A DNA stretch of 64,000 nt from Escherichia coli (GTDB taxonomy: Bacteria > Pseudomonadota > Gammaproteobacteria > Enterobacterales > Enterobacteriaceae). The position numbers and the translations under genes were made by a program. Numbering within the stretch: the stretch's first letter is position 1; the number at the start of each line of letters is the position of its first letter. The stretch lies in assembly GCF_044324785.1 (NCBI RefSeq), contig NZ_CP172127.1; one strand, 5' to 3'. Shown in pieces: positions 14,031 through 49,452 of this stretch. The notes beneath the pieces were generated by a model. That model was not told the origin of the DNA. It saw nothing but the letters and a program-made list of their open reading frames with translations, and did no database searches.

Positions 14031-14099
14031 AGGCTCATAATTTCTGGTGATTTTATGCCGCCAACTTTACTCGCCAGGCTCTGATTTTCCGGTGACAGG

Positions 14100-14121
14100 A
14101 AAATGACAAAATTGTCATTTT
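14100..14121. promoter_or_regulatory. CusR box (AAAATGACAAAATTGTCATTTT) in the divergent cusC/cusR promoter region
   Basis: Perfect palindrome seen in the 156-bp cusC-cusR intergenic region; matches the known CusR operator as I recall it. Confidence 0.75.
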
Positions 14122-14186
14122 GCCAATAAGCGATTGCCATCTGATCCCGCTACTCTAGAATTGCCCGGGCAACATGCGGAGGAAAT

Positions 14187-14870
14187 ATGAAACTGTTGAT
14201 TGTCGAAGATGAAAAGAAAACCGGAGAATACTTGACCAAAGGGTTAACCGAAGCCGGTTTTGTGGTCGATTTGGCCGACAATGGGCTGAATGGCTACCAT
14301 CTGGCGATGACCGGTGATTATGACCTGATAATCCTCGATATTATGCTGCCGGACGTGAACGGCTGGGATATCGTGCGCATGTTGCGCTCCGCCAATAAAG
14401 GGATGCCGATTCTGTTGCTTACCGCGCTTGGCACCATTGAACATCGCGTCAAGGGGCTGGAGTTGGGGGCCGATGACTATCTGGTGAAGCCGTTCGCTTT
14501 TGCTGAACTGCTGGCGCGGGTGCGCACTCTCCTGCGGCGCGGGGCGGCGGTGATTATCGAAAGTCAGTTTCAGGTTGCCGATCTGATGGTCGATCTCGTC
14601 AGCCGCAAAGTCACCCGCAGCGGCACGCGCATCACTCTGACCAGTAAAGAATTTACTCTGCTGGAGTTTTTCCTTCGCCATCAGGGCGAAGTGCTGCCCC
14701 GCTCGCTTATCGCCTCGCAGGTATGGGACATGAATTTCGACAGCGACACTAACGCCATTGATGTGGCGGTGAAGCGGCTACGCGGCAAAATCGACAACGA
14801 CTTTGAGCCGAAGCTGATTCAAACCGTGCGCGGCGTGGGTTACATGCTTGAGGTGCCGGATGGTCAGTAA
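14187..14870 (+). CDS. cusR: Copper-responsive two-component response regulator CusR (OmpR family)
   Basis: 227-aa [23 protein letters not shown]..., receiver plus winged-helix domains. Confidence 0.9.
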
Positions 14871-16308
14871 GCCATTTCAGCGCCCGTTTTCGCTGGCAAC
14901 CCGCCTGACCTTTTTTATCAGCCTGGCCACCATCGCGGCGTTTTTCGCCTTTGCATGGATCATGATCCACTCAGTAAAAGTGCATTTTGCCGAGCAGGAT
15001 ATTAATGATTTAAAAGAGATTAGCGCCACACTCAAGCGCGTTCTTAATCATCCCGAAGAGACACAAGCCCGACGCTTAATGACGCTGGAAGATATCGTCA
15101 GTGGTTATTCCAACGTGTTGATTTCCCTGGCAGATAGCCACGGTAAAACGGTATATCACTCCCCCGGTGCGCCCGATATCCGCGAGTTTGCACGTGATGC
15201 CATACCCGATAAAGACGCGCGGGGCGGCGAGGTGTATCTCCTTTCCGGCCCGACAATGATGATGCCGGGCCACGGTCACGGGCATATGGAACACAGCAAC
15301 TGGCGGATGATTAACTTGCCGATTGGCCCGTTGGTGGACGGCAAACCGATTTATACGCTCTACATCGCGCTTTCGATCGATTTTCATCTTCATTACATAA
15401 ATGATTTGATGAATAAACTTATTATGACCGCATCGATCATCAGCATCCTGATCGTCTTTATCGTGCTATTGGCGGTACATAAAGGTCACGCGCCGATCCG
15501 CAGCGTCAGCCGTCAAATCCAGAATATCACCTCGAAAGATCTCGACGTTCGCCTTGACCCGCAGACCGTGCCGATTGAGCTGGAACAGTTGGTACTGTCG
15601 TTCAACCATATGATCGAGCGTATTGAGGATGTCTTTACCCGCCAGTCCAATTTCTCAGCGGATATCGCCCACGAAATTCGTACACCAATTACGAATCTCA
15701 TAACGCAAACGGAAATCGCCCTCAGCCAGTCGCGCAGCCAGAAGGAGCTGGAAGATGTGCTCTACTCTAATCTCGAAGAGCTGACGCGAATGGCGAAAAT
15801 GGTCAGCGATATGTTGTTTCTCGCCCAGGCCGATAACAACCAGTTAATCCCCGAAAAGAAAATGCTCAACCTGGCGGATGAAGTCGGCAAAGTGTTCGAT
15901 TTTTTCGAGGCGTTAGCGGAAGATCGCGGCGTGGAGTTGCGGTTTGTTGGTGACGAGTGTCAGGTTGCGGGCGATCCGCTGATGTTGCGTCGGGCGTTAA
16001 GCAACCTGCTTTCGAACGCCCTGCGTTATACGCCACCCGGAGAGGCAATTGTTGTGCGCTGCCAGACGGTCGATCACCAGGTGCAAGTTACCGTCGAAAA
16101 CCCCGGTACGCCCATTGCGCCCGAGCACTTACCGCGATTGTTTGACCGTTTCTATCGCGTTGACCCCTCCCGTCAGCGAAAAGGCGAAGGTAGCGGCATT
16201 GGTCTGGCGATAGTGAAATCGATAGTTGTCGCGCATAAAGGCACGGTTGCGGTAACGTCAGATGCGCGGGGGACAAGGTTTATGATCAAACTACCGGAGA
16301 AAGGTTAA
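14860..16308 (+). CDS. cusS: Copper-sensing histidine kinase CusS
   Basis: ORF 14848..16308; ATG at 14860 ([19 protein letters not shown]...) overlaps the cusR stop; two TM segments, HAMP/HisKA/HATPase_c. Confidence 0.85.
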
Positions 16309-17051
16309 TTAGTTAGTTCAAACTCAAAGAGTGATGTATCGCCTTCTGTTATTATTTATCAATAAAACAGGGAAGACCTTATTGGTCGTCTGAAATCGAA
16401 GGTTATTCATTTTCGGATATTTACGAGATATTTAGATATGCAATTTAATCAAATTCGTGTTTCTACCAATTGTAGAGCACAATGCTATTACTAAATTTTC
16501 ATCACTATAAAAGAATCGGCTATAATATAAAGCGCAGTCAGGCATCATTAATCTCTATATTATTCACACAATCTATTTATCAAGTGAATTTGATAAATTC
16601 CTAATTTAAAATATTCACTATTAAGCCAGCGTCTAACGACGTTAAGATGGCAATGTGCAGATCATGTTATCAGGGTGGGGCGGTAGCGTATATTCCTTAT
16701 ACAAACCATCATTCATTTCAATAATATTTATTGAGTTATTTATTATTGTGAATAAAAAGACATTACAAATATTGGTTTAACTTTGCATATCAGGTGTTTT
16801 TTTGTTACTCGATGTAATATACGAGCCTGTCCTTAATAACATCGTGAACCCGTCAGTTGAGTTTGTGATTATTTTGTTGACTCAACAGCCCCCCGTTTCT
16901 CTGAAGTAAAATCCCGGACAAAATTCTCACATAACCATGACACTTTTCTGATATTCCCCGGTAACGCCTGAAGCCGGCCCGCTTATCTCATTACCCGACA
17001 TGTTGTACATGCAATATGTGCGGATTATTATTCATTTTCACGGAGGTTGCT

Positions 17052-18953
17052 ATGTCAACCGGATTACGTTTCACACTGGAAGTGGACGGCCTGCCACCGG
17101 ACGCTTTTGCGGTGGTCTCCTTTCATCTCACCCAGTCACTCTCTTCACTTTTTTCCCTAGACCTTTCTCTGGTCAGTCAGCAGGTTCTCTCCCTTGAATT
17201 TGCGCAGGTGCTGGACAAAATGGCCTACCTGACGGTATGGCAGGGCGATGACGTACAGCGCCGGGTGAAAGGCGTGGTGACCTGGTTTGAACTCGGGGAG
17301 AACGACAAAAACCAGATGCTGTACAGCATGAAGGTGCGCCCGCCGCTGTGGCGGGCAGGACTGCGTCAGAACTTCCGTATCTTCCAGAACGAGGACATCA
17401 GAAGCATCCTCGGCACCATACTGCAGGAAAACGACGTCACGGAGTGGAGCCCGCTGTTCAGCGAGCCGCATCCTTCCCGTGAGTTTTGTGTCCAGTACGG
17501 TGAAACCGATTACGACTTTCTCTGCCGGATGGCAGCGGAGGAAGGCATCTTCTTCTATGAGGAGCACGCGCAGAAAAGTACCGACCAGAGTCTGGTGCTG
17601 TGCGACACGGTCCGCTATCTGCCGGAGTCCTTTGAAATCCCCTGGAACCCGAACACCCGTACCGAGGTGAGCACCCTCTGCATCAGCCAGTTCCGCTACA
17701 GCGCACAAATCCGTCCTTCCTCCGTGGTGACCAAAGACTACACCTTTAAACGCCCCGGCTGGGCCGGGCGTTTTGACCAGGAAGGCCAGCATCAGGATTA
17801 CCAGCGCACACAGTATGAAGTGTATGACTGGCCGGGGCGTTTCAAGAGCGCCCACGGGCAGAACTTTGCCCGCTGGCAGATGGACGGCTGGCGAAACAAC
17901 GCAGAAACCGCGCGGGGAATGAGCCGCTCGCCGGAGATATGGCCGGGACGGCGAATTGTGCTGACGGAGCATCCGCAGGCGAACCTGAACCGGGAATGGC
18001 AGGTGGTGGCGAGCGAACTGCACGGCGAACAGCCGCAGGCGGTGCCGGGACGGCGGGGCGCGGGGACGGCGCTGGAGAACCAGTTTGTGGTAATCCCGGC
18101 AGACCGGACGTGGCGGCCACAGCCGAAGCCAAAGCCGTCAGTGGACGGTCCACAGAGCGCCGTCGTGACGGGGCCTGCGGGAGAGGAAATCTTCTGCGAC
18201 GAGCATGGCCGGGTGCGGGTGAAATTCAACTGGGACCGCTATAACCCGGCCAACCAGGACAGCTCGTGCTGGATACGGGTGGCGCAGGCGTGGGCGGGGC
18301 CGGGATTTGGCAACCTGGCGATACCGCGCGTGGGTCAGGAGGTCATTGTGGACTTCCTCAACGGCGACCCAGACCAGCCCATCATCATGGGCCGCACCTA
18401 TCACCAGGAAAACCGCACCCCCGGCAGCCTGCCGGGAACGAAGACGCAGATGACCATCCGCTCCAAAACATATATGGGCAGCGGGTTTAACGAGCTGAAG
18501 TTTGACGATGCAACAGGGAAAGAACAGGTCTACATCCACGCGCAGAAGAACATGGATACCGAGGTGCTCAACGACCGTACCACCACCGTAAAACACGATC
18601 ACCGCGAAACCGTAAAAAATGACCAGACGGTCACGATCCAGGAAGGTAACCGCCTTCTTACGGTGGCAAAAGGCCACAAAATCACAGGCGTACTAAAAGG
18701 GTCCTTATCTGAGGATGTCTTTCAGGACAGAGGCACGATTGCCGGTTCAGTGCATGTTGACGCTGTAAACAATGGTGGCGAAGGCGACGGTATACAGGCT
18801 TATACGGCGATTAAGCAAATTATGCTGGCCGTGGAGGAAAGCAAAATTGCGCTGACGCCGGATGGCATTCAGCTACAGGTCGGGGAATCGACGGTAATCA
18901 GGCTGTCGAAGGATGGCATCACCATCGTGGGCAGTTCTGTTTTCATCAACTGA
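17052..18953 (+). CDS. vgrG: Type VI secretion spike protein VgrG (Rhs-element-associated)
   Basis: ATG at 17052 after GGAGG; 633 aa MSTGLRFTLEVDGLPPDAFAVV... with gp27-like N-terminal and gp5-like beta-helix regions; directly upstream of DUF1795 and rhs genes. Confidence 0.8.
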   Translation: MSTGLRFTLEVDGLPPDAFAVVSFHLTQSLSSLFSLDLSLVSQQVLSLEFAQVLDKMAYLTVWQGDDVQRRVKGVVTWFELGENDKNQMLYSMKVRPPLWRAGLRQNFRIFQNEDIRSILGTILQENDVTEWSPLFSEPHPSREFCVQYGETDYDFLCRMAAEEGIFFYEEHAQKSTDQSLVLCDTVRYLPESFEIPWNPNTRTEVSTLCISQFRYSAQIRPSSVVTKDYTFKRPGWAGRFDQEGQHQDYQRTQYEVYDWPGRFKSAHGQNFARWQMDGWRNNAETARGMSRSPEIWPGRRIVLTEHPQANLNREWQVVASELHGEQPQAVPGRRGAGTALENQFVVIPADRTWRPQPKPKPSVDGPQSAVVTGPAGEEIFCDEHGRVRVKFNWDRYNPANQDSSCWIRVAQAWAGPGFGNLAIPRVGQEVIVDFLNGDPDQPIIMGRTYHQENRTPGSLPGTKTQMTIRSKTYMGSGFNELKFDDATGKEQVYIHAQKNMDTEVLNDRTTTVKHDHRETVKNDQTVTIQEGNRLLTVAKGHKITGVLKGSLSEDVFQDRGTIAGSVHVDAVNNGGEGDGIQAYTAIKQIMLAVEESKIALTPDGIQLQVGESTVIRLSKDGITIVGSSVFIN

Positions 18954-18980
18954 TTCACTCAGATTAACAGGGAGTATTTT

Positions 18981-19442
18981 ATGCAGTTCACTTTTAATGA
19001 AGGTCATATTCAGCTGCCATCGCAATGGCAGGATCAGTCGATGCAGGTCCTGGTGTCCACAGATAACAGTGGCATCAACCTGGTCATTACCCGCGAACCC
19101 GTTCCACAGGGAACCCTGACACCAGAACTGTACCAGGAAACGCTGGCGCTGTACCAGGGCAAACTTGATGGGTACACCGAACATGCCTGCCGGGAAATCA
19201 CTCTGGCAGAGGCCCCGGCCTGGCTGCTGGATTATTCCTGGAACGGTCCGGAAGATGAAGGGAATCAGGGGCGGATTAGCCAGATAGCCGTATTCCAGCG
19301 GCGTGGAGATACGCTGCTGACCTTCACTTTCAGCACCTCCTTATCCCTGAAGAACAGTCAAAAGACGATGCTGCTGGAGGTGATAAAGAGCTTCACCCCG
19401 TTGCCACCGGAGAATGACATCCAAAAGGACCAGCCGCGCTGA
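18981..19442 (+). CDS. DUF1795-family (EagR-like) effector-associated chaperone
   Basis: 153-aa ORF between vgrG and a prePAAR-containing rhs gene, the canonical position of Eag chaperones; assignment is by size and context. Confidence 0.55.
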   Translation: MQFTFNEGHIQLPSQWQDQSMQVLVSTDNSGINLVITREPVPQGTLTPELYQETLALYQGKLDGYTEHACREITLAEAPAWLLDYSWNGPEDEGNQGRISQIAVFQRRGDTLLTFTFSTSLSLKNSQKTMLLEVIKSFTPLPPENDIQKDQPR

Positions 19443-19461
19443 CATAAACGAGGGATAACAC

Positions 19462-22400
19462 ATGAGTGAAGGACCAGGCGGGCCACAGGGAGCGACCGCA
19501 GGCGGTACGCTGGCAATGCGAATGCTGTCACAGCAGGCGATGGTCGCCAGCCAGATGAAACGGGCAGCCAACGACAAAGCCATTGCACAGATGTTGGCAT
19601 CAAAAAAGTCTGGCCCCCCCGCCGCCAGGCTGGGCGATGAAATTCAGCACAAGAGTTTTTTGGGGGCGCTGGCAGGGGCCGTGCTGGGGGCGATAGTGAC
19701 CATCGCAGAAGGTTGCCTGATTATCGCCGCCTGTGCCACCGGCCCTTATGCGCTGGTTCTGGTGCCTGCGCTGATGTATGCCAGCTATAAGGCGAGTGAT
19801 TATGTGGAGGAGAAACAGAACCAGCTTGAATCCTGGATAAACAGCTTTTGTGACAAGGACGGGGCCATCAATACTGGTTCTAAAAATGTAAACATTAACG
19901 GAAAGCCCGCTGCCAGGGCCGCCGTCACACTTCCCCCTCCTCCCCTGACTGAAGCAATACCCTCTCCACCACAGGGGGAACCTTCATGGGGGGATATTGC
20001 CACTGACCTGCTTGAATCGGCAGCGGAAAAAGCAGTGCCACTGGCGAAGGCCTGGGGGAACGCTGTTATCACCCTGACGGACAGCAATGCCAGTTTTATG
20101 GATCGCTTATGTGCAGGCACATCGCTTCTGTTTCCCTACGGCCCGGTATTAATGGAGTTTGCCACCATGGTGGGCGGGCGTGGCGAAATCAAAAAAGACG
20201 TGGATTTCCCGGAAGCCGGTGAAGACACGGCGCTCTGCGACAAGGAGACTAAACCGCCGAGGATAGCCCAGGGCAGCAGCAACGTCTTCATCAACAATCA
20301 GCCTGCCGCGCGCAAGGGCGACAAACTGGAGTGCAGCGCGGCAATCGTGGAAGGTTCGCCGGACGTCTTTATTGGGGGTGAGCAGGTCACCTATCTGGAT
20401 ATCCAGCCGGAGTTCCCGCCGTGGCAGAGAATGATCCTGGGGGGAATAACGATAGCCAGCTATCTTCTGCCGCCAGCGGGACTGCTGGGAAAAATGAAGA
20501 ATCTGGCGAGACTCGGCAAACTGGGAAACCTGCTGGGGAAAAGCGGGAAGCTGCTGGGCGCAAAACTCGGCGCATTGCTGAGCAGAACAAAAAATGCCCT
20601 GAAAAATACGTATAACGTCCTGAAAAAGTTTATCAAAGATCCGGTTGACCCGGTAACCGGCGCGTACTGCGACGAACGTACCGACTTCACCCTGGGCCAG
20701 ACCCTCCCCCTCTCCTTCACCCGTTTCCACAGTTCTGTACTGCCACTGCATGGCCTGACGGGCGTGGGCTGGAGCGACTCCTGGAGCGAATACGCCTGGG
20801 TGCGTGAACAGGGAAACCGGGTGGATATCATCAGCCAGGGAGCCACGCTGTACTTTGCCTTCGACGGAGACAGTGATACGGCGGTTAACCCGTATCACGC
20901 CCAGTATATCCTGCGCCGCCGCGACGATTACCTGGAGCTGTTCGACCGTGATGCCCTGAGCAGCCGCTTCTTTTATGACGCCTTTCCGGGAATGCGCCTG
21001 CGCCACCAGGTGACCGGCGATACCAATGATGACCGCCTGGCACACAGCCCCGGTGACCGGATGTACATGCTGGGCGGAATGAGTGACACCGCCAGCAACC
21101 GCATCACGTTTGAGCGCGACAGTCAGTACCGGATCACGGGTGTCAGTCACACCGACGGGATCCGGCTTAAACTGACGTACCACGCCAGCGGCTACCTGAA
21201 AGCCATTCACCGCACGGATAACGGCATACAGACGCTGGCGACCTACGAACAGGACGAACGGGGACGGCTGACAGAAGCGGATGCGCGGCTGGACTACCAC
21301 CTGTTTTATGAGTACGACGATGCGGACCGGATCATCCGCTGGTCCGATAACGACCAGACGTGGAGCCGTTTCACCTACGATGCACAGGGCCGGTGCGTGA
21401 CCGTCACCGGGGCGGAAGGCTATTACAACGCCACGCTGGACTATGGTGACGGCTGCACTTCCGTGACGGACGGCAAGGGCATTCACCGTTATTACTATGA
21501 TCCTGACGGCAATATCCTGCGGGAAGACGCGCCGGACGGCAGTACCACCACGTATGAATGGGATGAATTCCATCACCTGCTGGCCCGCCACTCCCCTGCC
21601 GGACGGGTGGAGAAATTTGAATACAACGCCGTACACGGTCAGTTAAGCCGTTACACGGCGGCAGACGGCGCGGTGTGGCAGTACCGCTATGATGAGCGCG
21701 GCCTGCTCAGCAACATCACCGACCCTGCCGGGCAGACGTGGACACAGCAGTGTGATGAACGCGGCCTGCCGGTAAGTCTGGTGTCGCCACAGGGCGAAGA
21801 GACCCGGCTGGCGTACACGCCACAGGGGCTGCTGTCGGGGATATTCCGCCAGGATGAACGGCGTCTGGGCATAGAGTACGACCACCACAACCGGCCGGAA
21901 ACACTCACCGACGTGATGGGCCGTGAACACCACACCGAATACAGCGGTCACGACCTGCCGGTGAAGATGCGCGGCCCCGGCGGTCAGTCAGTGCGGTTAC
22001 AGTGGCAGCAGCACCATAAACTGAGTGGCCTTGAGCGGGCAGGAACCGGCGCGGAAGGATTCCGCTACGACCGCCACGGCAACCTGCTGGCGTACACGGA
22101 CGGTAACGGCGTTGTCTGGACAATGGAATACGGCCCGTTCGATTTGCCGGTGGCGCGAACGGACGGTGAAGGCCACCGCTGGCAGTACCGCTACGATAAA
22201 GACACGCTGCAACTGACAGAAGTCATCAATCCGCAGGGTGAGTCATACCGTTATATTCTCGACAACTGTGGCCGGGTGACGGAAGAGCGTGACTGGGGCG
22301 GCGTGGTCTGGCGTTACCGCTATGACGCCGATGGCCTGTGTACCGCCAGGGTTAACGGCCTGGAGGAAACTATCCTCTACAGCCGGGACGCCGCAGGCCG

Positions 22401-24324
22401 CCTGGCAGAAGTCATCACCCCGGAAGGCAAAACGCAGTATGCGTATGACAAATCCGGCAGGCTGACGGGTATCTTCAGCCCGGACGGCACATCACAGCGC
22501 ACCGGCTACGACGAACGCGGGCGGGTGAATGTCACCACTCAGGGCAGACGGGCCATTGAGTACCACCACCCCGATGAACACACCGTTATCCGCTGTATCC
22601 TGCCACCGGAAGATGAACGCGACAGACACCCCGGTGAATCCCTGCTGAAAACCACCTACCGCTACAACGCCGCCGGAGAACTGACGGAGGTTATCCTGCC
22701 GGGGGATGAGACGCTGACGTTCAGCCGTGATGAGGCAGGACGTGAAGTGCTCCGGCACAGTAACCGGGGTTTTGCCTGTGAACAGGGCTGGAATGCAGCC
22801 GGTCAGCTTACCAGCCAGCGCGCCGGATTTTTCCCGGCGGAAGCCACATGGGGCGGACTGCTCCCCTCACTGGTGCGGGAGTACCGTTACGACAGCGCGG
22901 GCAATGTGTCGGCTGTCACCAGCCGGGAAGACTACGGACGGGAAACACGGCGGGAGTACCGGCTGGACCGGAACGGCCAGGTCACAACGGTGACAGCCTC
23001 AGGCACCGGGCTGGGCTATGGCGAAGGCGACGAGACTTATGGCTATGACAGCTGCGGCTACCTGAAGGCGCAGTCTGCGGGCAGGCACCGGATAAGTGAA
23101 GAGACTGACCAGTATGCCGGAGGCCACCGGCTGAAACAGGCCGGAAACACGCAGTATGACTATGACGCCGCAGGCCGGATGGTCAGCCGCACCAGACACC
23201 GTGACGGCTACCGCCCGGAAACAGAGCGGTTCCGGTGGGACAGCCGGGACCAGCTGACCGGGTATTGCAGCGCACAGGGGGAGCAGTGGGAATACCGCCA
23301 CGACGCCAGCGGCAGGCGGACGGAAAAACGCTGCGACCGGAAGAAAATCCGTTTTACGTACCTGTGGGACGGCGACAATATTGCGGAAATCCGGGAATAC
23401 CGCGATGATAAACTGTACAGCGTACGGCACCTGGTGTTTAACGGCTTTGAGCTGGTAAGCCAGCAGTGCAGCCGGGTACGGCAGGCGCATCCGTCCGTGG
23501 CCCCGCAGTGGGTGACGCGAACGAATTATGCGGTGAGCGACCTGACAGGCCGCCCGCTGATGCTCTTTAACAGTGAAGGTAAAACCGTCTGGCGGCCGGG
23601 ACAGACCAGCCTGTGGGGGCTGGCACTCAGCCTGCCCGCAGACACCGGCTACCCGGACCCGCGCGGGGAACTGGACCCGGAAGCCCCCCCCGGCCTGCTG
23701 TATGCGGGACAGTGGCAGGATACGGAATCGGGGCTGTGCTATAACCGGTTCCGGTATTACGAGCCGGAAACCGGAATGTACCTGGTGAGTGATCCGCTGG
23801 GGTTGCAGGGAGGTGAGCAGACTTACCGGTATGTGCCTAATCCTTGTGGGTATGTTGATCCGCTGGGGCTGGCAAAAACCAGTATTATAAAATCTTCTAC
23901 AGGCAAAATCCCACAAGGGTTAACAAAAAGCGAATTTGAGATTTTTTCAAAAAAATTAAAGGATGTATTAGCCCGAGAGGGAATCTCGACAGAGAATGTG
24001 TTTGTACATGGCAGTAGAGCCAGAGGAGATGCTGTATCAGGTGTTTCAGATATTGATATAAAAGTGATCCTTAGTGATAAAGATTTTGGTGCCTTTGCAG
24101 CAAGACGTATTGCTGAGTCCTCAGGAAGGACTCGAAATTTAATCAGGAAGGCCGTTGCTAAAAATCAAAAAATAAATTCAAGAGGAATTTCTAAAACTTT
24201 TGAATCTACTGTATGGGATGAGGTTTTCACTACCTTACCAAAAGGTGAGTTTTCAAGCATTCAAGTTTCTGTTATGACCAAAACTTCACCATTCAACACT
24301 AATCCGAGTATTATATTACCATGA
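19462..24324 (+). CDS. rhs: Rhs-family polymorphic toxin: prePAAR motif + TM helices + PAAR domain + YD-repeat shell + DPxGL boundary + 150-aa C-terminal nucleotidyltransferase-like toxin domain
   Basis: 1620-aa ORF; N-terminal AARLGDEIQH (AARxxDxxxH prePAAR) then hydrophobic helices; PAAR region GSSNVFINNQPAARKGDKLECSAAIVEGSPDVFIGG; many YD repeats; core ends VSDPLGLQGGEQTYRYVPNPCGYVDPLGL; C-terminal domain is much more AT-rich and contains VHGSRARGDAVSGVSDIDIKV. Confidence 0.9.
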   Translation: MSEGPGGPQGATAGGTLAMRMLSQQAMVASQMKRAANDKAIAQMLASKKSGPPAARLGDEIQHKSFLGALAGAVLGAIVTIAEGCLIIAACATGPYALVLVPALMYASYKASDYVEEKQNQLESWINSFCDKDGAINTGSKNVNINGKPAARAAVTLPPPPLTEAIPSPPQGEPSWGDIATDLLESAAEKAVPLAKAWGNAVITLTDSNASFMDRLCAGTSLLFPYGPVLMEFATMVGGRGEIKKDVDFPEAGEDTALCDKETKPPRIAQGSSNVFINNQPAARKGDKLECSAAIVEGSPDVFIGGEQVTYLDIQPEFPPWQRMILGGITIASYLLPPAGLLGKMKNLARLGKLGNLLGKSGKLLGAKLGALLSRTKNALKNTYNVLKKFIKDPVDPVTGAYCDERTDFTLGQTLPLSFTRFHSSVLPLHGLTGVGWSDSWSEYAWVREQGNRVDIISQGATLYFAFDGDSDTAVNPYHAQYILRRRDDYLELFDRDALSSRFFYDAFPGMRLRHQVTGDTNDDRLAHSPGDRMYMLGGMSDTASNRITFERDSQYRITGVSHTDGIRLKLTYHASGYLKAIHRTDNGIQTLATYEQDERGRLTEADARLDYHLFYEYDDADRIIRWSDNDQTWSRFTYDAQGRCVTVTGAEGYYNATLDYGDGCTSVTDGKGIHRYYYDPDGNILREDAPDGSTTTYEWDEFHHLLARHSPAGRVEKFEYNAVHGQLSRYTAADGAVWQYRYDERGLLSNITDPAGQTWTQQCDERGLPVSLVSPQGEETRLAYTPQGLLSGIFRQDERRLGIEYDHHNRPETLTDVMGREHHTEYSGHDLPVKMRGPGGQSVRLQWQQHHKLSGLERAGTGAEGFRYDRHGNLLAYTDGNGVVWTMEYGPFDLPVARTDGEGHRWQYRYDKDTLQLTEVINPQGESYRYILDNCGRVTEERDWGGVVWRYRYDADGLCTARVNGLEETILYSRDAAGRLAEVITPEGKTQYAYDKSGRLTGIFSPDGTSQRTGYDERGRVNVTTQGRRAIEYHHPDEHTVIRCILPPEDERDRHPGESLLKTTYRYNAAGELTEVILPGDETLTFSRDEAGREVLRHSNRGFACEQGWNAAGQLTSQRAGFFPAEATWGGLLPSLVREYRYDSAGNVSAVTSREDYGRETRREYRLDRNGQVTTVTASGTGLGYGEGDETYGYDSCGYLKAQSAGRHRISEETDQYAGGHRLKQAGNTQYDYDAAGRMVSRTRHRDGYRPETERFRWDSRDQLTGYCSAQGEQWEYRHDASGRRTEKRCDRKKIRFTYLWDGDNIAEIREYRDDKLYSVRHLVFNGFELVSQQCSRVRQAHPSVAPQWVTRTNYAVSDLTGRPLMLFNSEGKTVWRPGQTSLWGLALSLPADTGYPDPRGELDPEAPPGLLYAGQWQDTESGLCYNRFRYYEPETGMYLVSDPLGLQGGEQTYRYVPNPCGYVDPLGLAKTSIIKSSTGKIPQGLTKSEFEIFSKKLKDVLAREGISTENVFVHGSRARGDAVSGVSDIDIKVILSDKDFGAFAARRIAESSGRTRNLIRKAVAKNQKINSRGISKTFESTVWDEVFTTLPKGEFSSIQVSVMTKTSPFNTNPSIILP

Positions 24325-24671
24325 AGAAAAAAGATATTAGATTTGCAATATCCATTAACTCCAACTTAAGTAAGATAGAATTAATGGAAAAAATTAAAAA
24401 TATAATCCCAGGGCTTATTGAAATAACTTCCAGTGCATTAAGAGAAGAAAAAAACATGGTAGTTATTGAAGAAAATGATCTTTATGACCCTATAAAAGCA
24501 GAGGGAGCTGATGGATGGATGTATTATAAATTCATATTATCCATATTCCCATTAAAGGGAGTGGAAACAACATTAGAATATCAACGGGAATTATCTTTTC
24601 TTTTCTTAAAGAAAATAAAAGATGCGGGCCTGTTGGGTGAACTTATATGCGAGGATGATTTTCATGACTGA
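24321..24671 (+). CDS. Putative cognate immunity protein (RhsI) for the Rhs C-terminal toxin
   Basis: 116-aa AT-rich ORF whose ATG overlaps the rhs stop (ATGA); position and composition typical of Rhs immunity genes; no recognisable domain. Confidence 0.6.
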   Translation: MKKKDIRFAISINSNLSKIELMEKIKNIIPGLIEITSSALREEKNMVVIEENDLYDPIKAEGADGWMYYKFILSIFPLKGVETTLEYQRELSFLFLKKIKDAGLLGELICEDDFHD

Positions 24672-24729
24672 TGACCTCTACATATATCCTCAGTTCGTGG
24701 CTGGTATTACATGATCTGACAGGGAAAGA

Positions 24730-24883
24730 TCGTGGCGAAATCAAAAAAGACGTGGATTTCCCGGAAGCCGGTGAGGACACGGCGCTCTGCGACAAGGAGA
24801 ACAAACCACCGAGGATAGCCCAGGGCAGCAGCAACGTCTTCATCAACAATCAGCCTGCCGCACGCAAAGGGGACAAACTGCAG
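24730..24883 (+). pseudogene. Displaced 154-bp fragment of the rhs PAAR-encoding region
   Basis: Near-identical to main rhs 20177-20329 (GEIKKDVDFPEAGEDTALCDKE.KPPRIAQGSSNVFINNQPAARKGDKL); preceded by CAGGGAAAGATC at 24718-24729 and truncated by the IS left end at 24881. Confidence 0.8.
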
Positions 24884-26171
24884 GGAAAGATCACGTAACG
24901 CTGCTTTTTTGTACTAAATAATTCGCATTTTATGTTTAAAAATTGAGATATTCCTCATTACCTAAAGCTGTTTTTTATTGCTTATACATGATCAAATACT
25001 CCTTACATAATTAAGGAGAACAAAATGGAACTTAAAAAATTGATGGAACATATTTCTGTTATCCCCGATTACAGACAAGCATGGAAAGTAGAACATAAAT
25101 TGTCAGATATTCTACTGTTGACTATTTGCGCCGTCATTTGTGGTGCAGAAGGCTGGGAAGATATAGAGGATTTTGGTGAAACACATCTCGATTTTTTGAA
25201 GCAATATGGTGATTTTGAAAATGGTATTCCTGTCCACGATACCATTGCCAGAGTTGTATCCTGTATCAGTCCTGCAAAATTTCACGAGTGCTTTATTAAC
25301 TGGATGCGAGATTGCCATACTTCAGATGATAAAGACGTTATTGCAATCGATGGAAAAACACTCCGGCATTCTTATGACAAGAGTCGCCGCAGGGGAGCGA
25401 TTCATGTCATTAGTGCGTTCTCAACAATGCACAGTCTGGTCATCGGACAGATCAGGACGGATGAGAAATCTAATGAGATTACAGCTATCCCAGAACTTCT
25501 TAACATGCTGGATATTAAAGGAAAAATCATCACAACTGATGCGATGGGTTGCCAGAAAGATATTGCAGAGAAGATACAAAAACAGGGCGGTGATTATTTA
25601 TTCGCTGTAAAAGGAAATCAGGGGCGGCTTAATAAAGCCTTTGAGGAAAAATTCCCACTGAAAGAATTAAATAATCCAGAGCATGATAGTTACGCAATTA
25701 GTGAAAAGAGTCACGGCAGAGAAGAAATCCGACTTCATATTGTTTGCGATGTCCCTGATGAACTTATTGATTTCACGTTTGAATGGAAAGGGCTGAAGAA
25801 ATTATGCATAGCAGTCTCCTTTCGCTCAATAATAGCAGAGCAAAAGAAAGAGCCAGAAATGACGGTCAGATATTATATCAGTTCTGCTGATTTAAACACA
25901 GAAAAGTTCGCCACAGCAATCCGAAACCACTGGCACGTGGAGAATAAGCTGCACTGGCGTCTGGATGTGGTAATGAATGAAGACGACTGCAAAATAAGAA
26001 GAGGAAATGCAGCAGAATTATTTTCAGGGATACGGCACATCGCTATTAATATTTTGACGAATGATAAGGTATTCAAGGCAGGGTTAAGACGTAAGATACG
26101 AAAAGCAGCTATGGACAGAAACTACATGGCGTCAGTCCTTGCGGGGAGCGGGCTTTCGTAATCTTTCCCTG
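24881..26171 (+). mobile_element. ISAs1-family insertion sequence (Rhs H-repeat element), copy 1, ~1.29 kb
   Basis: Terminal inverted repeats CAGGGAAAGAT... (left) and ...ATCTTTCCCTG (right); contains a 378-aa transposase ORF; second copy at 31026-32315. Confidence 0.8.
25025..26161 (+). CDS. ISAs1-family transposase (H-repeat-associated protein, YhhI/YdcC/YbfD-like)
   Basis: 378-aa [40 protein letters not shown]...; recognised as the H-rpt protein family of Rhs elements. Confidence 0.85.
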
Positions 26172-26174
26172 GAC

Positions 26175-26396
26175 ATGACGATTATTGTTCGTTCAAATCC
26201 GAGTAAAGCCGCTATTCTTGAAGAATTTTTACATGGTACACAAGAGAAACTAGGAATAGCTGAAAAATTAGGACGTTATGGACTAGGGAGTGCAGAAACG
26301 CACGTTAAGGATTTCATGATAAGACACAAAAAAATGCTTGGGTTATCTGATGAGGATGTAGCAATACTCAAAATATTGAAAGACAAGGGGTTGTGA
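26175..26396 (+). CDS. Hypothetical small protein (73 aa from MTIIV...); possibly the remnant C-terminus of a toxin domain truncated by the IS
   Basis: ORF 26139..26396 continues in frame across the IS right end; first ATG after the IS at 26175; AT-rich; stop overlaps next ORF start (ATGA). Confidence 0.3.
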   Translation: MTIIVRSNPSKAAILEEFLHGTQEKLGIAEKLGRYGLGSAETHVKDFMIRHKKMLGLSDEDVAILKILKDKGL

Positions 26397-26683
26397 TGAA
26401 TATAATTCTGCCGATAAAAGATATATTTATTATTGCGGGAAACATAGTTTTTAGCGTTTTATACAATGAACATATTGAGTTCCCATGCCGCTGCCAATTA
26501 CTATCTTCAAATTCTGAAGTTATGCAAGAGTTATATATTGAAAAAGAGTTATTTATTAAACGCACTACAGAAAATGATTGTCGTGCTTTAGTGTTAAGAG
26601 GAACATTGGAATACTTATTTGATGAAATTATTGCTGGCGATTGTGCATTGGCCTTATTACAAAAAGAAATAAAAAAAGATTAA
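26393..26683 (+). CDS. Hypothetical AT-rich protein, candidate orphan immunity protein
   Basis: 96-aa ORF translationally coupled to the upstream ORF by ATGA overlap; very AT-rich; no recognisable domain. Confidence 0.35.
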   Translation: MMNIILPIKDIFIIAGNIVFSVLYNEHIEFPCRCQLLSSNSEVMQELYIEKELFIKRTTENDCRALVLRGTLEYLFDEIIAGDCALALLQKEIKKD

Positions 26684-26895
26684 TCCAATATGTAGAACTG
26701 GACAATACCCATCTTTTAACAATGAACTTCGTAATTTTTATCTTAGAAATAATGCTACATTATATGAGGTATATCATGAAGTAATTCATGCCAAGCAATT
26801 TGCGAAAATATTTCTATCGGAGGTGCTGATGCACCATCTAATATGAGACTTATGGATATAATGACACATACAACTCATCATAAATATTACAGGCC

Positions 26896-27264
26896 TTGGG
26901 AATGATAAATAAAATAGTGAAAAAAATGTTGGTTTCATATAGCCCTAAGAAACCGGAGTCTAGGGGCGGGGATTTTGTTATTCCGTTGTTTTTTAATGAG
27001 AAAGTTTCTTTTTTTAGCATAAAAAGTGGCAAGCCAGTGCGATATGGTCTTATGGTATTTACAGGGAAAGTAATTACCATAGATGATATTCTTAGTAAAG
27101 TTCGTTTTCCTGATGTTATGAATGAGCAAAATATTCAACCGTTAATTGACTTTATTAATAACATTAGCGATTTTAAAATAGGGGATGTTATTGAAATTGA
27201 TGATAATGGTAAATTGAAAGTTGTGCCAAAATCAGCAGGACACCCTGTGAGTAAATTGCCATGA
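26896..27264 (+). CDS. Hypothetical AT-rich protein, candidate orphan immunity protein
   Basis: 122-aa ORF immediately upstream of the orphan rhs fragment; AT-rich; no recognisable domain. Confidence 0.35.
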   Translation: MGMINKIVKKMLVSYSPKKPESRGGDFVIPLFFNEKVSFFSIKSGKPVRYGLMVFTGKVITIDDILSKVRFPDVMNEQNIQPLIDFINNISDFKIGDVIEIDDNGKLKVVPKSAGHPVSKLP

Positions 27265-27289
27265 TACTTAAGGGGCCTGATTTTCTGTT

Positions 27290-30051
27290 TTTGCCAGTGG
27301 GACGAATACCATCACCTGCTGGCGAGGCTGTCTCCGGCAGGACGGCTGGAAAAGTTTGACTATCATCTGACACTCGGTCAGTTAAGCCGTTACACGGCGG
27401 CAGACGGCGCGGAGTGGCAGTACCGCTATGATGAGCGCGGCCTGCTCAGCAACATCACCGACCCTGCCGGGCAGACGTGGACACAGCAGTGCGATGAACG
27501 CGGCCTGCCGGTGAGTCTGGTGTCGCCACAGGGCGAAGAGACCCGGCTGGCGTACACCGCTCAGGGGCTGCTGTCGGGGATATTCCGCCAGGATGAACGG
27601 CGTCTGGGCATAGAGTACGACCACCACAACCGGCCGGAAACACTCACCGACGTGATGGGCCGTGAACACCACACCGAATACAGCGGTCACGACCTGCCGG
27701 TGAAGATGCGCGGCCCCGGCGGTCAGTCAGTGCGCTTACAGTGGCAGCAGCACCATAAACTGAGCGGCATTGAACGTGCTGGAACCGGCGCGGAAGGATT
27801 TCGCTATGACCGCCACGGCAACCTGCTGGCCTGGACGGACGGCAACGGTGTTGACTGGACAATGGAATACGGCCCGTTTGATTTGCCGGTGGCGCGAACG
27901 GACGGTGAAGGCCACCGCTGGCAGTACCGCTACGATAAAGACACGCTGCAACTGACAGAAGTCATCAATCCGCAGGGCGAGTCATACCGTTATATTCTCG
28001 ACAACTGTGGGCGGGTGACGGAAGAGCATGACTGGGGCGGCGTGGTCTGGCGTTACCGCTATGACGCCGATGGTCTGTGTACCGCCAGGGTTAACGGCCT
28101 GGAGGAAACCATCCTCTACAGCCGGGACGCCGCAGGCCGCCTGGCAGAAGTCATCACCCCGGAAGGGAAAACGCAGTATGCGTATGACAAATCCGGCAGG
28201 CTGACGGGTATCTTCAGCCCGGACGGCACATCACAGCGCACCGGCTACGACGAACGCGGGCGGGTGAATGTCACCACTCAGGGCCGACGGGCCATTGAAT
28301 ACCACCACCCCGATGAACACACCGTCATCCGCTGTATCCTGCCACCGGAAGATGAACGCGACAGACACCCCGGTGAATCCCTGCTGAAAACCACCTACCG
28401 CTACAACGCCGCCGGAGAACTGACGGAGGTTATCCTGCCGGGGGATGAGACGCTGACGTTCAGCCGTGATGAGGCAGGACGTGAAGTGCTCCGGCACAGT
28501 AACCGGGGTTTTGCCTGTGAACAGGGCTGGAATGCAGCCGGTCAGCTTACCAGCCAGCGCGCCGGATTTTTCCCGGCGGAAGCCACATGGGGCGGACTGC
28601 TCCCCTCACTGGTGCGGGAGTACCGTTACGACAGCGCGGGCAATGTGTCGGCTGTCACCAGCCGGGAAGACTACGGACGGGAAACACGGCGGGAGTACCG
28701 GCTGGACCGGAACGGCCAGGTCACAACGGTGACAGCCTCAGGCACCGGGCTGGGCTATGGCGAAGGCGACGAGACTTATGGCTATGACAGCTGCGGCTAC
28801 CTGAAGGCGCAGTCTGCGGGCAGGCACCGGATAAGTGAAGAGACTGACCAGTATGCCGGAGGCCACCGGCTGAAACAGGCCGGAAACACGCAGTATGACT
28901 ATGACGCCGCAGGCCGGATGGTCAGCCGCACCAGACACCGTGACGGCTACCGCCCGGAAACAGAGCGGTTCCGGTGGGACAGCCGGGACCAGCTGACCGG
29001 GTATTGCAGCGCACAGGGGGAGCAGTGGGAATACCGCCACGACGCCAGCGGCAGGCGGACGGAAAAACGCTGCGACCGGAAGAAAATCCGTTTTACGTAC
29101 CTGTGGGACGGCGACAATATTGCGGAAATCCGGGAATACCGCGATGATAAACTGTACAGCGTACGGCACCTGGTGTTTAACGGCTTTGAGCTGGTAAGCC
29201 AGCAGTGCAGCCGGGTACGGCAGGCGCATCCGTCCGTGGCCCCGCAGTGGGTGACGCGAACGAATTATGCGGTGAGCGACCTGACAGGCCGCCCGCTGAT
29301 GCTCTTTAACAGTGAAGGTAAAACCGTCTGGCGGCCGGGACAGACCAGCCTGTGGGGGCTGGCACTCAGCCTGCCCGCAGACACCGACTACCCGGACCCG
29401 CGCGGGGAGCTGGACCCGGAAGCCGACCCCGGCCTGCTGTATGCAGGACAGTGGCAGGATACGGAATCAGGGCTGTGCTATAACCGGTTCCGGTACTACG
29501 AGCCGGAAACCGGAATGTACCTGGTGAGTGATCCGCTGGGGTTGCAGGGGGGTGAGCAGACTTACCGGTATGTGCCGAATCCTTTAAGATATAAAGATTT
29601 CTATGGGCTTAGTAAGAGTTCAATAATAACGAGAGGAAAGAATGCTGGTCATGGCTATGCAGCCAGCGTTACACCTGGAGGCAAAGGTACGGTGTTGGCT
29701 GGTCACGGAGGATCAAAATTTGGCGATAAAATGATTATACCAGAAGGCGTATCGATAACGATGCCGAGAGATGGTATTAAAATATCAGATATGACTGGAA
29801 AATTACTGGAATCTGGTAATGTGGATGATATAATTAAAGCTGCAAGTAATAATCCTCGTGTAGCTAGCGATCTTGAAGGTTGGGTTACTTATTTGCCCGG
29901 CACTGAAATCCCTGATTATATTTTAAAACCACCCACCAATCTTAACATACTGGAAAATTCAGTAACGGTGAACACTTCAACTTATTTATCTCAAATGGTA
30001 AATGCTGGTCAAGGTAATGTAATCTGGGCTGCATGCACCGAATTTTTTTAA
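27290..30051 (+). pseudogene. rhs: Orphan rhs module: 3' part of the rhs core (no in-frame start; reading frame opens at 27255) fused to an alternative ~155-aa C-terminal toxin domain
   Basis: Homology to main rhs begins ~27290 (main 21565) and is near-identical from 27385; frame has a stop at 27252-27254 and no ATG until 27511; core ends ...DPLGLQGGEQTYRYVPNP then diverges (LRYKDFYGLSKSSIITRGKNAGHGYAAS...). Confidence 0.8.
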
Positions 30052-30065
30052 CGCGGGGTAATCGT

Positions 30066-30548
30066 ATGTATTTTAAAGATGATACTGACTATACATATTT
30101 CCTTCCTAATGAATATTTTTTACACGGGGTGAAAAATGTGGGCTGGATAGACAGAGAACACCCCTTCACAAAAGGGATTAGTGACGCTGAATTTATTGAA
30201 AAGTTAAAAGCAATAATTCTAACAGAGAATGAAGCAACTTGTTTTTCAGTTAATAAAATAAGAGGATTTCACAAATGTAATTTTTGCAATAGTGAAATGA
30301 TAACAATAACCGATGGAAGAAAAAAAGGATACCTTGGCATGAGTGAAATATGGATTCCATCCATCCACCATAATGAGTATTACGCGTTTCCTTCATTAAT
30401 TTTCCATTATATAACATCTCACATGTATAGACCACCAGAGGACTTTATTGTATCTGTTTTAAACTTGAATTTAAGCGAGAGTTTTTGCGCTCAAAACATA
30501 TATGACAATAAAATTAAGGAATTAAAAATAGACTTCTGGTTTCGTTAA
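30066..30548 (+). CDS. Putative immunity protein for the orphan Rhs C-terminal domain
   Basis: ATG at 30066, 15 bp after the orphan rhs stop; 160 aa, AT-rich, contains CNFCN and His-rich segment; no recognisable domain. Confidence 0.5.
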   Translation: MYFKDDTDYTYFLPNEYFLHGVKNVGWIDREHPFTKGISDAEFIEKLKAIILTENEATCFSVNKIRGFHKCNFCNSEMITITDGRKKGYLGMSEIWIPSIHHNEYYAFPSLIFHYITSHMYRPPEDFIVSVLNLNLSESFCAQNIYDNKIKELKIDFWFR

Positions 30549-30567
30549 AGCTGGTAATTTAACTTAT

Positions 30568-30660
30568 CGGGAATACCGCTATGATGGCAGTTTCAGACGG
30601 ACGGAGAAATGCTGTCAGCAAAAAGACTTCCGCTTCGCGTATCTGTGGGGCATGGGGATA
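30568..30660 (+). pseudogene. Short fragment of a divergent rhs core 3' region
   Basis: Translates to EYRYDGSFRRTEKCCQQKDFRFAYLWG, resembling but not identical to the resident core EYRHDASGRRTEKRCDRKKIRFTYLWDG. Confidence 0.5.
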
Positions 30661-30726
30661 ATTTATCTTCATCAATTGATATATTGATTAATGGCAAGGA
30701 GGCCATTGAAATTCCGTAAGGCCAAC

Positions 30727-30912
30727 TTGATATGACGCCTGGCACACAGCCCCGGTGACCGGATGTATATGCTGGGCGGGATGAGCGACACCGCCAGCAA
30801 CCGCATCACGTTTGAGCGCGACAGCCAGTACCGGATCACGGGTGTCAGTCACACCGACGGGATCCGGCTTAAACTGACGTACCACGCCAGCGGCTACCTG
30901 AAAGCCATTCAC
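30727..30912 (+). pseudogene. Rhs core fragment (copy of main rhs ~21040-21225) truncated by an IS left end
   Basis: Encodes RLAHSPGDRMYMLGGMSDTASNRITFERDSQYRITGVSHTDGIRLKLTYHASGYLKAIHR, near-identical to the main rhs; followed by CAGGGAAAGATCACG at 30915. Confidence 0.8.
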
Positions 30913-30914
30913 CG

Positions 30915-31025
30915 CAGGGAAAGATCACGTAACGCTGCTTTTTTGTACTAAGCAATTCGCATTTTATGTTCAGTATTTGAGATACTCCTTATAACACAAA
31001 CCTGTTTTTCATAGCTTATATATGT
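30915..31025 (+). repeat. Partial duplicate of the ISAs1 left end (~110 bp) upstream of the complete copy 2
   Basis: CAGGGAAAGATCACGTAACGCTGCTTTTTTGTACTAA... matches the IS left end, then a second left end begins at 31026. Confidence 0.7.
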
Positions 31026-32315
31026 AGGAAAAGATCACGTAACGCTCCTTTTTTGTACTAAATAATTCGCATTTTATGTTTAAAAATTGAGATATTCCTC
31101 ATTACCTAAAGCTGTTTTTTATTGCTTACACATGATCAAATACTCCTTACATAATTAAGGATAACAAAATGTAACTTAAAAAATTGATGGAACATATTTC
31201 TATTATCCCCGATTACAGACAAGCCTGGAAAGTGGAACATAAATTATCGGATATTCTACTGTTGACTATTTGTGCCGTTATTTCGGGTGCAGAAGGTTGG
31301 GAAGATATAGAGGATTTTGGGGAAACACATCTCGATTTTTTAAAACAATATGGTGATTTTGAAAATGGTATTCCTGTTCACGATACCATTGCCAGAGTTG
31401 TATCCTGTATCAGCCCTGCAAAATTTCACGAGTGCTTTATTAACTGGATGCGAGATTGCCATACTTCAGATGATAAAGACGTCATCGCAATTGATGGAAA
31501 AACACTCCGGCATTCTTATGGCAAGAGTCGCCGCAGGGGAGCGATTCATGTCATTAGTGCGTTCTCAACAATGCACAGTCTGGTCATCGGACAGATCAGG
31601 ACGGATGAGAAATCCAATGAAATTACAGCTATCCCTGAACTTCTTAACATGCTGGATATTAAAGGAAAAATCATCACAACTGATGCAATGGGTTGCCAGA
31701 AAGATATTGCAGAGAAGATACAAAAACAGGGCGGTGATTATTTATTCGCTGTAAAAGGAAATCAGGGGCGGCTTAATAAAGCCTTTGAGGAAAAATTTCC
31801 ACTGAAAGAATTAAATAATCCAGAGCATGACAGTTACGCCATTAGTGAAAAGAGTCACGACAGAGAAGAAATCCGTCTTCATATTGTTTGCGATGTCCCT
31901 GATGAACTTATTGATTTCACGTTTGAATGGAAAGGACTGAAGAAATTATGCGTGGCAGTCTCCTTTCGGTCAATAATAGCAGAACAAAAGAAAGAGCCAG
32001 AAATGACGGTCAGATATTATATCAGTTCTGCTGATTTAACCGCAGAGAAGTTCGCCACAGCAATCCGAAACCACTGGCACGTGGAGAATAAGCTGCACTG
32101 GCGTCTGGACGTGGTAATGAATGAAGACGACTGCAAAATAAGAAGAGGAAATGCAGCAGAATTATTTTCAGGGATACGGCACATCGCTATTAATATTTTG
32201 ACGAATGATAAGGTATTCAAGGCAGGGTTAAGACGTAAGATGCGAAAAGCAGCCATGGACAGAAACTATCTCGCGTCAGTCCTTGCTGGGAGCGGGCTTT
32301 CGTAATCTTTCCCTG
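31026..32315 (+). mobile_element. ISAs1-family insertion sequence (H-repeat element), copy 2, direct orientation relative to copy 1
   Basis: Same terminal sequences as copy 1 (left GGAAAAGATCACG, right ATCTTTCCCTG); transposase ORF inside. Confidence 0.8.
31187..32305 (+). CDS. ISAs1-family transposase (H-repeat protein), copy 2
   Basis: 372 aa from ATG 31187; the upstream ATG of copy 1 is followed here by TAA (ATGTAA), so this copy starts at the internal Met; a few substitutions relative to copy 1. Confidence 0.8.
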
Positions 32316-32502
32316 CGTTAACCGCCCCTCCTTGACACCACGCTTTTGTCTACATTCTACGCAAACGGCAACTTTTATAACCAGTGTAAAAATAACGTGC
32401 CGCAATAGTCATACCTATTAATGGTAAAAAGCTGTCACAATTCATAAAAAACCTTAATATACGCCACCCTAAACATAACCAGCGTTAATGTAAGGTTTTT
32501 GT

Positions 32503-48725: not shown

Positions 48726-48727
48726 CC

Positions 48728-49435: not shown

Positions 49436-49452
49436 TATGTGTTATAACAATT

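Follow-up and report, generated by a model that had tools for sequence, protein, structure and literature searches.

A vgrG–eagR–rhs island at the cusS–nfrB site of Escherichia coli carrying a putative MNT-fold toxin tip

In Escherichia coli K-12 the sensor kinase gene cusS and the receptor gene nfrB stand side by side, and the question raised by the E. coli chromosome studied here is what has come to lie between them and what it would do for its carrier. We analysed a stretch of 64,000 nucleotides (64 kb; hereafter the window) of contig NZ_CP172127.1, in which the two genes are separated by a run of vgrG, chaperone, rhs and immunity genes followed by rhs fragments and insertion sequences. From its gene content and intactness, its junctions, its distribution in the population, the fold and motif of its toxin tip and the conserved linkage of toxin and immunity genes, we consider it very likely that this interval is the vgrG–eagR–rhs type VI secretion system (T6SS) cargo island of E. 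coli at the nfrB–cusS site (rhs locus 4; the rhsF/rhsG island of enterohaemorrhagic E. coli, EHEC), delivery and tip switching included. The island as such is already described and common, and new is only this allele with its attached tip of the MNT (minimal-nucleotidyltransferase) fold.

The interval is an insertion relative to the K-12 arrangement. K-12 MG1655 has nfrB (b0569) and cusS (b0570) as neighbours with a spacer of 149 bp, as the initial annotation of this DNA had stated, and its placing of about 16 kb between the two genes (16310–32340) agrees with the measured ends to within about 30 bp. Both junctions were placed by comparison with K-12, and site occupancy was counted in a set of E. 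coli genomes (below), checks that had been proposed with that annotation. On the left, K-12 identity begins to fail at about 16282 and is gone once the Leu-Pro codons at about 16299 are passed when the K-12 spacer is compared with the window, a position inside the last cusS codons; on the right (32362/32363), the K-12 match returns at 32363 with caaacggcaac. These positions give about 16.07 kb of DNA added between cusS and nfrB. The left flank, cusS (14860–16308, + strand; NF007345 CusS, 983 bits), has its last approximately 8 codons unlike those of the K-12 allele, the protein ending in ...MIKLPEKG in the window, in ...VIVLPERG in O157 and in ...VITLPA in K-12 and in E. whittamii (in full for K-12, ...GTRFVITLPA-stop). 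These alternative endings (window 16248–16308) track site occupancy, and the island junction thus falls inside the coding end of the sensor kinase gene. The right flank is nfrB (32503–34740, + strand; NF008411, 1333 bits). Composition alternates sharply along the interval, as had been noted from the sequence at the outset: GC is 0.36 in the leader, 0.54–0.65 in vgrG and the rhs core, 0.33 in the attached tip and its immunity gene, 0.61–0.64 in the core of the orphan rhs and 0.34–0.42 in the second tip and its immunity gene, with values of about 0.31–0.44 over tips, immunity genes and insertion sequence copies. All components that the initial annotation had listed, from leader, vgrG, DUF1795 gene and rhs with immunity gene to fragments, two ISAs1 copies, small open reading frames (ORFs) and an orphan module, were found, and the profile searches it had called for recovered VgrG, DcrB/DUF1795, prePAAR_I, PAAR, DUF6531, YD repeats, Rhs core and ISAs1.

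The functional core of the island begins with vgrG (17052–18953, + strand), which is intact and encodes a T6SS spike protein of 633 aa that covers positions 1–512 of the 513 of model TIGR03361 (628 bits against a cut-off of 186), contains the Pfam domains Phage_GPD, Phage_base_V and Gp5_trimer_C and so belongs to the VgrG (TssI) spikes. It is followed by an intact gene for an EagR-type chaperone of 153 aa (18981–19442, + strand; DUF1795/DcrB family, Pfam DcrB PF08786, E 3.2e-26) and by the main rhs gene (19462–24324, + strand), encoding a full-length class I prePAAR/PAAR Rhs effector of 1620 aa. In this protein a prePAAR_I domain (aa 54–99, E 6e-5) with the motif AARLGDEIQH and a PAAR_motif domain (aa 261–310, E 2.3e-10) are accompanied by hydrophobic segments that flank PAAR (about aa 63–106 and about aa 324–342, from 19-aa windows starting at aa 63–88 and aa 324), and then by DUF6531, YD repeats (233 bits in nine stretches) and an Rhs_assc_core match (67.7 bits). 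The core ends in the hyperconserved DPLG-(18)-DPLG motif, with DPLG at aa 1444 and aa 1466, and the toxin tip begins at about aa 1470. The protein therefore has the prePAAR motif, transmembrane (TM) region, PAAR and second hydrophobic region of a class I prePAAR Rhs protein, with the DUF1795 Eag gene directly upstream of its gene and after vgrG, and it has the YD cage, DPxG-(18)-DPxG motif, tip and immunity gene of a polymorphic toxin. Such effectors, reportedly described by Ahmad et al. in 2020 and said to include RhsA–EagR1 of Pseudomonas protegens and Rhs1 of Salmonella, share with the window protein the AARxxDxxxH motif, TM segments on both sides of PAAR and an upstream DUF1795 (Eag) gene with a cognate vgrG.

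The three genes are packed tightly, as in an operon, on one strand, with 27 nt between vgrG and the chaperone gene, 19 nt between the chaperone gene and rhs and a 4-nt overlap of rhs with its immunity gene, so that the all-plus-strand order of vgrG, chaperone, rhs and immunity gene, read from the start as a delivery module dependent on a T6SS elsewhere in the genome, does fit such a cargo role. Frameshifts in vgrG or rhs, which the initial annotation feared it might have missed, were not found in these genes or in the chaperone gene: the annotations of O157:H7 PA20 and O121 RM8352 give exactly the same lengths for vgrG (1902 nt) and for the chaperone gene (462 nt), and for rhs, 4863 nt here, they give 4851 nt in PA20 and 4830 nt in RM8352 (at most 33 nt apart). 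Upstream of vgrG lies an AT-rich leader (16309–17051, + strand; recognised by its composition, GC about 36%), presumably a promoter or regulatory region. In it six promoter-like sites were predicted against 3.9 ± 2.0 in shuffled sequences, which is not above background, and no terminator was found; an Rfam scan of 16000–32700 gave no known RNA family. The 3' 475 bp of the leader (16574–17050) are about 90% identical to the sequence immediately preceding another vgrG, that of the yncG–yncH–vgrG–rhs locus of other E. coli, and this part has two or three matching places in most genomes, which points to a conserved vgrG-upstream module common to vgrG–rhs islands at different sites, perhaps a promoter or silencing region.

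This island has been met before under other names. A literature search on vgrG, rhs and cusS returned one irrelevant paper only, and the locus was found through 'rhsG' and through Jackson et al. (2009, BMC Genomics 10:584; PMC2935791), whose rhs locus 4 is flanked by 'N4 receptor nfrB' and 'histidine kinase cusS'. They describe it as the place of the only clade IV rhs in E. coli and as the one E. coli locus with strings of dissociated tips downstream; seven of their 20 strains carry it, and on those seven they demonstrated the displacement of resident tips by incoming ones. Site, flanks and layout are those of the window: a complete rhs comes first, and behind it lies GC-poor DNA in which core fragments and tips are dissociated. 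Against the classical RHS_core model NF041261 (RhsA–E type) the window protein scores 152.8 bits, far below the cut-off of 2000 and over the C-terminal end of the model only, which agrees with placement in clade IV, not clade I, by Jackson et al. Their description predates the T6SS, EagR and prePAAR framework, and the attached MNT-fold tip and displaced Stv tip of the window were not identified among the tips discussed for locus 4.

In EHEC O157:H7 the same island is z0707–z0702 or ECs0603–ECs0607 (S-loop 44), with rhsF, rhsFI, rhsG and rhsGI (PMC7216683, PMC7618764). Its order of cusS, leader, vgrG (1902 nt), DcrB/DUF1795 gene (462 nt), full rhs, immunity gene, orphan rhs with tip, ISAs1 and nfrB is that of the window, which shares the cusS–nfrB location and the collinear vgrG–DUF1795–rhs genes at 93–97% nucleotide identity to O157 PA20. 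At the protein level VgrG is 96% identical, the chaperone, whose O157 homologue is named EagR in PMC7216683, 99% and the Rhs core 95%. The full O157:H7 Rhs has 1616 aa. The differences lie in and behind the tips: the attached tip of O157 is a different one (nuclease-like according to PMC7618764) and its orphan rhs is tipped by a zincin metallopeptidase, whereas in the window the attached tip is of the MNT fold, the orphan tip is a Stv domain, a second ISAs1 and extra remnants are present, and the zincin tip is represented by an HExxH fragment only.

How such a module would act follows from what is established for effectors of the class I prePAAR Rhs type, and secretion, toxicity, biochemical target and tip switching are proposed here for the window genes by analogy. 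The DUF1795 chaperone would shield the N-terminal TM segments of the Rhs protein, prePAAR/PAAR would cap the cognate VgrG trimer, and the YD-repeat cage would enclose the C-terminal tip, to be freed by autoproteolysis at the DPLG-(18)-DPLG aspartyl-protease motif. A T6SS encoded elsewhere would then fire the spike into neighbouring bacteria, while the overlapping 116-aa gene would protect sibling cells. A review (PMC6730261, citing Ma et al. 2017) reports that delivery of E. coli Rhs tips needs the upstream vgrG and eagR. The 64-kb window contains no T6SS core genes. Strain N3, the closest complete genome (see below), has a T6SS cluster at the yafV/aspV site, about 360 kb from its cusS locus (locus L075, NZ_CP031609.1 4705001–4755000), with tssB, C, E, F, G, J and K, a DotU-type gene, tssH, tssA, tssM and two hcp genes, adjoined by another vgrG and a classical RHS core gene.

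The attached tip is a rare member of a small uncharacterised MNT-fold toxin family and the only unusual part of the island. It comprises the last approximately 150 residues of the Rhs protein (23875–24324, + strand), and its cognate immunity gene (24321–24671, + strand; 116 aa) starts across the rhs stop codon. NTP_transf_2 and Polbeta matches to the tip are weak; an AlphaFold model is confident (predicted local distance difference test score, pLDDT, 92.7). The tip carries the Pol-beta-type/MNT motif hG[GS]x(9-13)Dh[DE]h on an alpha-beta-alpha-beta-alpha-beta core, its GSR...DxD being intact. In an alignment of 24 tip members G51, S52, R53, D64 and D66 are invariant, and these residues form the nucleotidyltransferase motif. 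A sequence search of the PDB with the tip gave marginal matches only (E 0.037). When 1.84 billion representative proteins were searched exhaustively with HMMER, the family came to 42 clusters only, the domain always being C-terminal on carriers of widely varying length (Rhs, CdiA or two-partner secretion (TPS) proteins, and others). One carrier is a TPS/filamentous-haemagglutinin protein of 2,441 aa with a ShlB-type transporter gene upstream, a CdiA-like protein, and the 116-aa protein encoded after its tip is a homologue of the window immunity protein (26% identity, E 3e-10); a tip borne on an Rhs fragment is 79% identical to the window tip and is followed by a 116-aa gene product 65% identical to the window immunity protein. 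Linkage of tip and immunity gene is thus kept across two secretion systems, good evidence for a real toxin–immunity pair. The 116-aa immunity protein has no Pfam or NCBIfam match.

What the tip would do is less firm. It would transfer a nucleotide, probably AMP, onto an essential protein or onto an RNA 3' end and thereby kill or arrest the recipient; as a prediction from fold and motif, nucleotidyl transfer to such a target is a call that we place at about even. We give the same balanced judgement to the wider proposal that the tip founds an uncharacterised MNT-fold family of polymorphic toxins, borne both by Rhs proteins of the T6SS and by CdiA proteins of the type V secretion system (T5SS), among other carriers, which would nucleotidylylate an essential protein or RNA and be neutralised by an immunity family of about 116 aa. 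No Rhs, CdiA or T6SS toxin of the MNT fold was found in the literature searched, the coverage of which was incomplete, and the nucleotidyltransferases mentioned among polymorphic toxins by Zhang et al. (2012) are RelA/SpoT-like only. The MNT proteins of HEPN–MNT modules (HI0073, MntA) and the ANT aminoglycoside nucleotidyltransferases share with the tip the fold and the GS...DxD nucleotide-binding motif at a sequence identity of only about 17–23%, but these are antitoxins or resistance enzymes inside the producer, whereas the tip sits where Rhs and CdiA proteins carry their toxin and is paired with an immunity protein of its own.

The DNA downstream of the main rhs records earlier tip replacements, in the form of a Stv tip with core, the remains of a zincin tip, immunity genes and rhs pieces that insertion sequences have cut short. 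A 150-bp rhs fragment from the PAAR region (24731–24880, + strand; PAAR match, 95.3% identical to 20179–20328) is cut by ISAs1, and at this position O121 retains a longer DUF6531 fragment. The first ISAs1/ISEc1 (H-rpt) copy (24881–26171, + strand; transposase 25025–26161, NF033564, 417 bits) is 96.2% identical to the second, and the terminal inverted repeats are GGGAAAGAT...ATCTTTCCC. Then comes an AT-rich array (26139–27264, + strand) of ORFs at 26139–26396 and 26393–26683, a remnant at 26685–26843 and a 122-aa ORF at 26896–27264, presumably leftovers of displaced tips and of immunity genes; its small ORFs have no Pfam or NCBIfam match, and the remnant, in frame and unannotated, carries HEVIH (the HExxH zincin motif) and matches the metallopeptidase tip found on RhsG of O157 at 82% identity.

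The orphan rhs (27298–30051, + strand), a promoter-less copy, joins 2.29 kb of 3' core, 97.4% identical to 21559–23845, to a Stv tip (Pfam PF21527). The repeat (27298–29584, 2,287 bp) is a direct copy of 21559–23845, and the gene has no PAAR and no proper start, its frame being open from 27265 with GTG at 27511 as the first start codon, so that its product cannot load on the spike. The tip (29578–30051) matches PF21527 with E 1.1e-12 over model positions 2–121 of 121 and is thus a Stv domain; it contains AGHGG and AACTE, which are candidates only for the conserved His and Cys positions of the family seed. The Stv domain is linked to expanding Shigella lineages in a preprint (bioRxiv 10.1101/2022.08.23.504947, 2026 version), where it is a predicted toxin with a proposed catalytic His–Cys dyad. 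A sequence search of the PDB with this tip gave nothing meaningful. Its immunity gene (30033–30548, + strand; 171 aa) encodes a DUF7919 protein (Pfam, E 1.6e-32), and DUF7919 may be the immunity family of Stv tips. Further on, a 190-bp rhs core fragment (30732–30920, + strand; 96.8% identical to 21029–21218) adjoins a partial ISAs1 end (about 30911–31024; about 85% identical to the left end of the element), and the second ISAs1/ISEc1 copy (31025–32315, + strand; NF033564, 412 bits) forms the right edge of the island, with 47 bp of island DNA between it and the K-12 homology at 32363; ISAs1 stands at the same right edge in O157, O121 and N3. The 97.4%-identical direct core repeats could recombine, deleting about 5.7 kb and joining the Stv tip to the full-length gene. 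The orphan rhs could in this way act as a recombination reservoir; alternatively it could be expressed from an internal promoter, as for EHEC rhsG.

Site occupancy and tip counts were taken from 5,426 complete E. coli genomes, a site being called occupied where at least 80% of a 1,151-bp probe for the cusS–leader junction matched in one place. The 3' end of cusS is joined to a homologous leader in 2,694 of them and 2,338 have the uninterrupted K-12-type cusS–nfrB junction, the island thus being a common presence/absence polymorphism and not an unusual insertion; 745 genomes match the full 18.2-kb query over 80% or more of its length. Most of the 2,694 leaders are only about 83% identical to that of the window. 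Over vgrG–rhs the window is 93.3% identical to O157, against 97–98% in the flanks, and island alleles more diverged than their flanks indicate that the island is old or repeatedly exchanged. Sliding identity among window, K-12 and O157 gave no junction-specific gradient of divergence, the sign of an old linked polymorphism, except in the last approximately 50 bp of cusS. In the same comparison the cus side (12648–16247), at 93–99% per 300 bp, is in patches more diverged than the nfr side (32363–36500), at 96–100%. The same architecture at the same site is found in O157:H7, in O121 and in strain N3, the only complete genome with both window tips, which is 98.6% identical over the locus and 100% over both tip–immunity stretches.

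Armed tips are far rarer than the island. N3 is the one complete genome with the whole MNT-fold tip, and 139 others have only the last approximately 70 tip codons with the whole immunity gene (window 24107–24680); O121 RM8352 has an MNT tip remnant in the same cusS–nfrB island, downstream of a different attached tip. The Stv tip is likewise complete in N3 alone, and in 57 other genomes the toxin is reduced to its last part beside the whole immunity gene (29956–30560). The arrangement with vgrG and rhs between cusS and nfrB was not found to be the ancestral state in most lineages, an outcome that the initial annotation had named as one that would count against it: the site is empty also in E. 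whittamii and in the GTDB representative of E. coli. A CusS-based scan of species representatives yielded three Escherichia loci only, E. albertii, E. fergusonii, E. marmotae and E. ruysiae not being recovered; two of the three are empty, and in the third (Escherichia sp. MOD1-EC7003) the contig ends about 1.1 kb past cusS. In Citrobacter no nfrB or vgrG lies within 10 kb of cusS, and the Citrobacter CusS C-terminal peptides (...TRFILTLPKHAI) resemble the K-12 ending slightly more than the island-type one, a faint hint, from a thin outgroup sample, that the empty site is ancestral.

Several points weigh against reading the island as delivered T6SS cargo with switchable, enzymatically active tips. 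A 64-kb window cannot show the T6SS of its source genome, and in N3 tssA and a VasL-domain gene are annotated as frameshifted; the rhs gene beside that cluster and both rhs genes at the cusS locus are so annotated too, and with several such annotations in one genome an assembly (indel) error is plausible. The EHEC T6SS is repressed by H-NS and the locus is transcribed independently from internal promoters (PMC7618764), so that delivery may be rare or conditional. As for the tips, the MNT-fold tip is a putative enzyme whose activity is predicted from fold and motif, and the alignment of its 24 members has no invariant acidic residue on the later strand, S137 being nearly invariant there, so that the usual third carboxylate of Pol-beta is not obviously conserved. 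In the orphan, DFYG replaces the second DPxG, and this tip may stay uncleaved if fused to the full gene.

The EHEC findings lead to the alternative that fares best, possible in our judgement though distinctly less probable than T6SS delivery: the locus would work mainly without a T6SS, as intracellular modules of toxin–antitoxin (TA) or regulatory type, with internal promoters in the 3' core expressing tip and immunity protein only, from the full gene and from the orphan. The effect would be on the producer's own physiology or on stabilisation of the locus, and it could coexist with T6SS delivery. In O157 Sakai, tip–immunity pairs are expressed from internal transcription starts in rhsF and rhsG under repression of the T6SS, with RhsGint being toxic and RhsFI a binder of small RNAs (PMC7618764); in Salmonella, Rhs elements have been reported as type II TA modules (PMC7043789); and the orphan of the window keeps a long open frame with its internal GTG start at 27511. 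Internal promoters in the window are, however, putative and argued by analogy with EHEC, and an intact vgrG, chaperone gene, prePAAR/PAAR and cage would be unexpected if delivery were dispensable.

It is improbable that the island is a decaying relic, its toxins disused and its immunity genes kept against attackers. The 139 genomes with only the tail and immunity gene of the MNT tip, and the 57 in the same state for the Stv tip, would suit such decay, as would the IS-truncated rhs pieces and tip remnants of the locus and the frameshifted annotation of both N3 rhs genes at this site. In the window, however, no interruption is found in vgrG, eagR, the rhs gene of 1620 codons or either immunity gene, family matches are full-length, and the tip retains its catalytic motif. 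A recent, lineage-specific horizontal insertion of the island as a whole into a K-12-like cusS–nfrB site, for which its absence from K-12, the GTDB representative and E. whittamii, its composition unlike that of the flanks and the ISAs1 at its edge might speak, is very improbable and is contradicted by the occupancy of 2,694 genomes, the collinear O157 and O121 islands, the divergence of vgrG–rhs and leaders and the presence of the locus in seven of 20 strains already in 2009, the lineage-specific part being the tip combination only.

Elsewhere in the window, lambdoid prophage genes occupy the minus strand at 44737–64000, downstream of envY and ompT (ompT 40047–41000). They include those for a tail tip protein J (49453–52866), a tape measure protein (55269–57830) and an SppA-type protease (62635–63993), and a 1135-aa ORF (45318–48725) with no family match that may be a tail fibre gene, all on the minus strand.

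T6SS cargo delivery with tip switching remains the reading that we favour, and for the biology of Rhs islands the locus is a clean, intact example in which all stages of tip turnover are found together. If the proposal for the attached tip is true, the armed tip is very rare (one of the 5,426 complete genomes, and the window) and its immunity gene wider (139 genomes), which would suggest past or ongoing exposure to the toxin. Interbacterial toxins would then gain an enzymatic mode of action, nucleotidyl transfer by a toxin that has a dedicated immunity protein, and the tip would tie these toxins to the enzymes of HEPN–MNT and MenT-type toxin–antitoxin systems.

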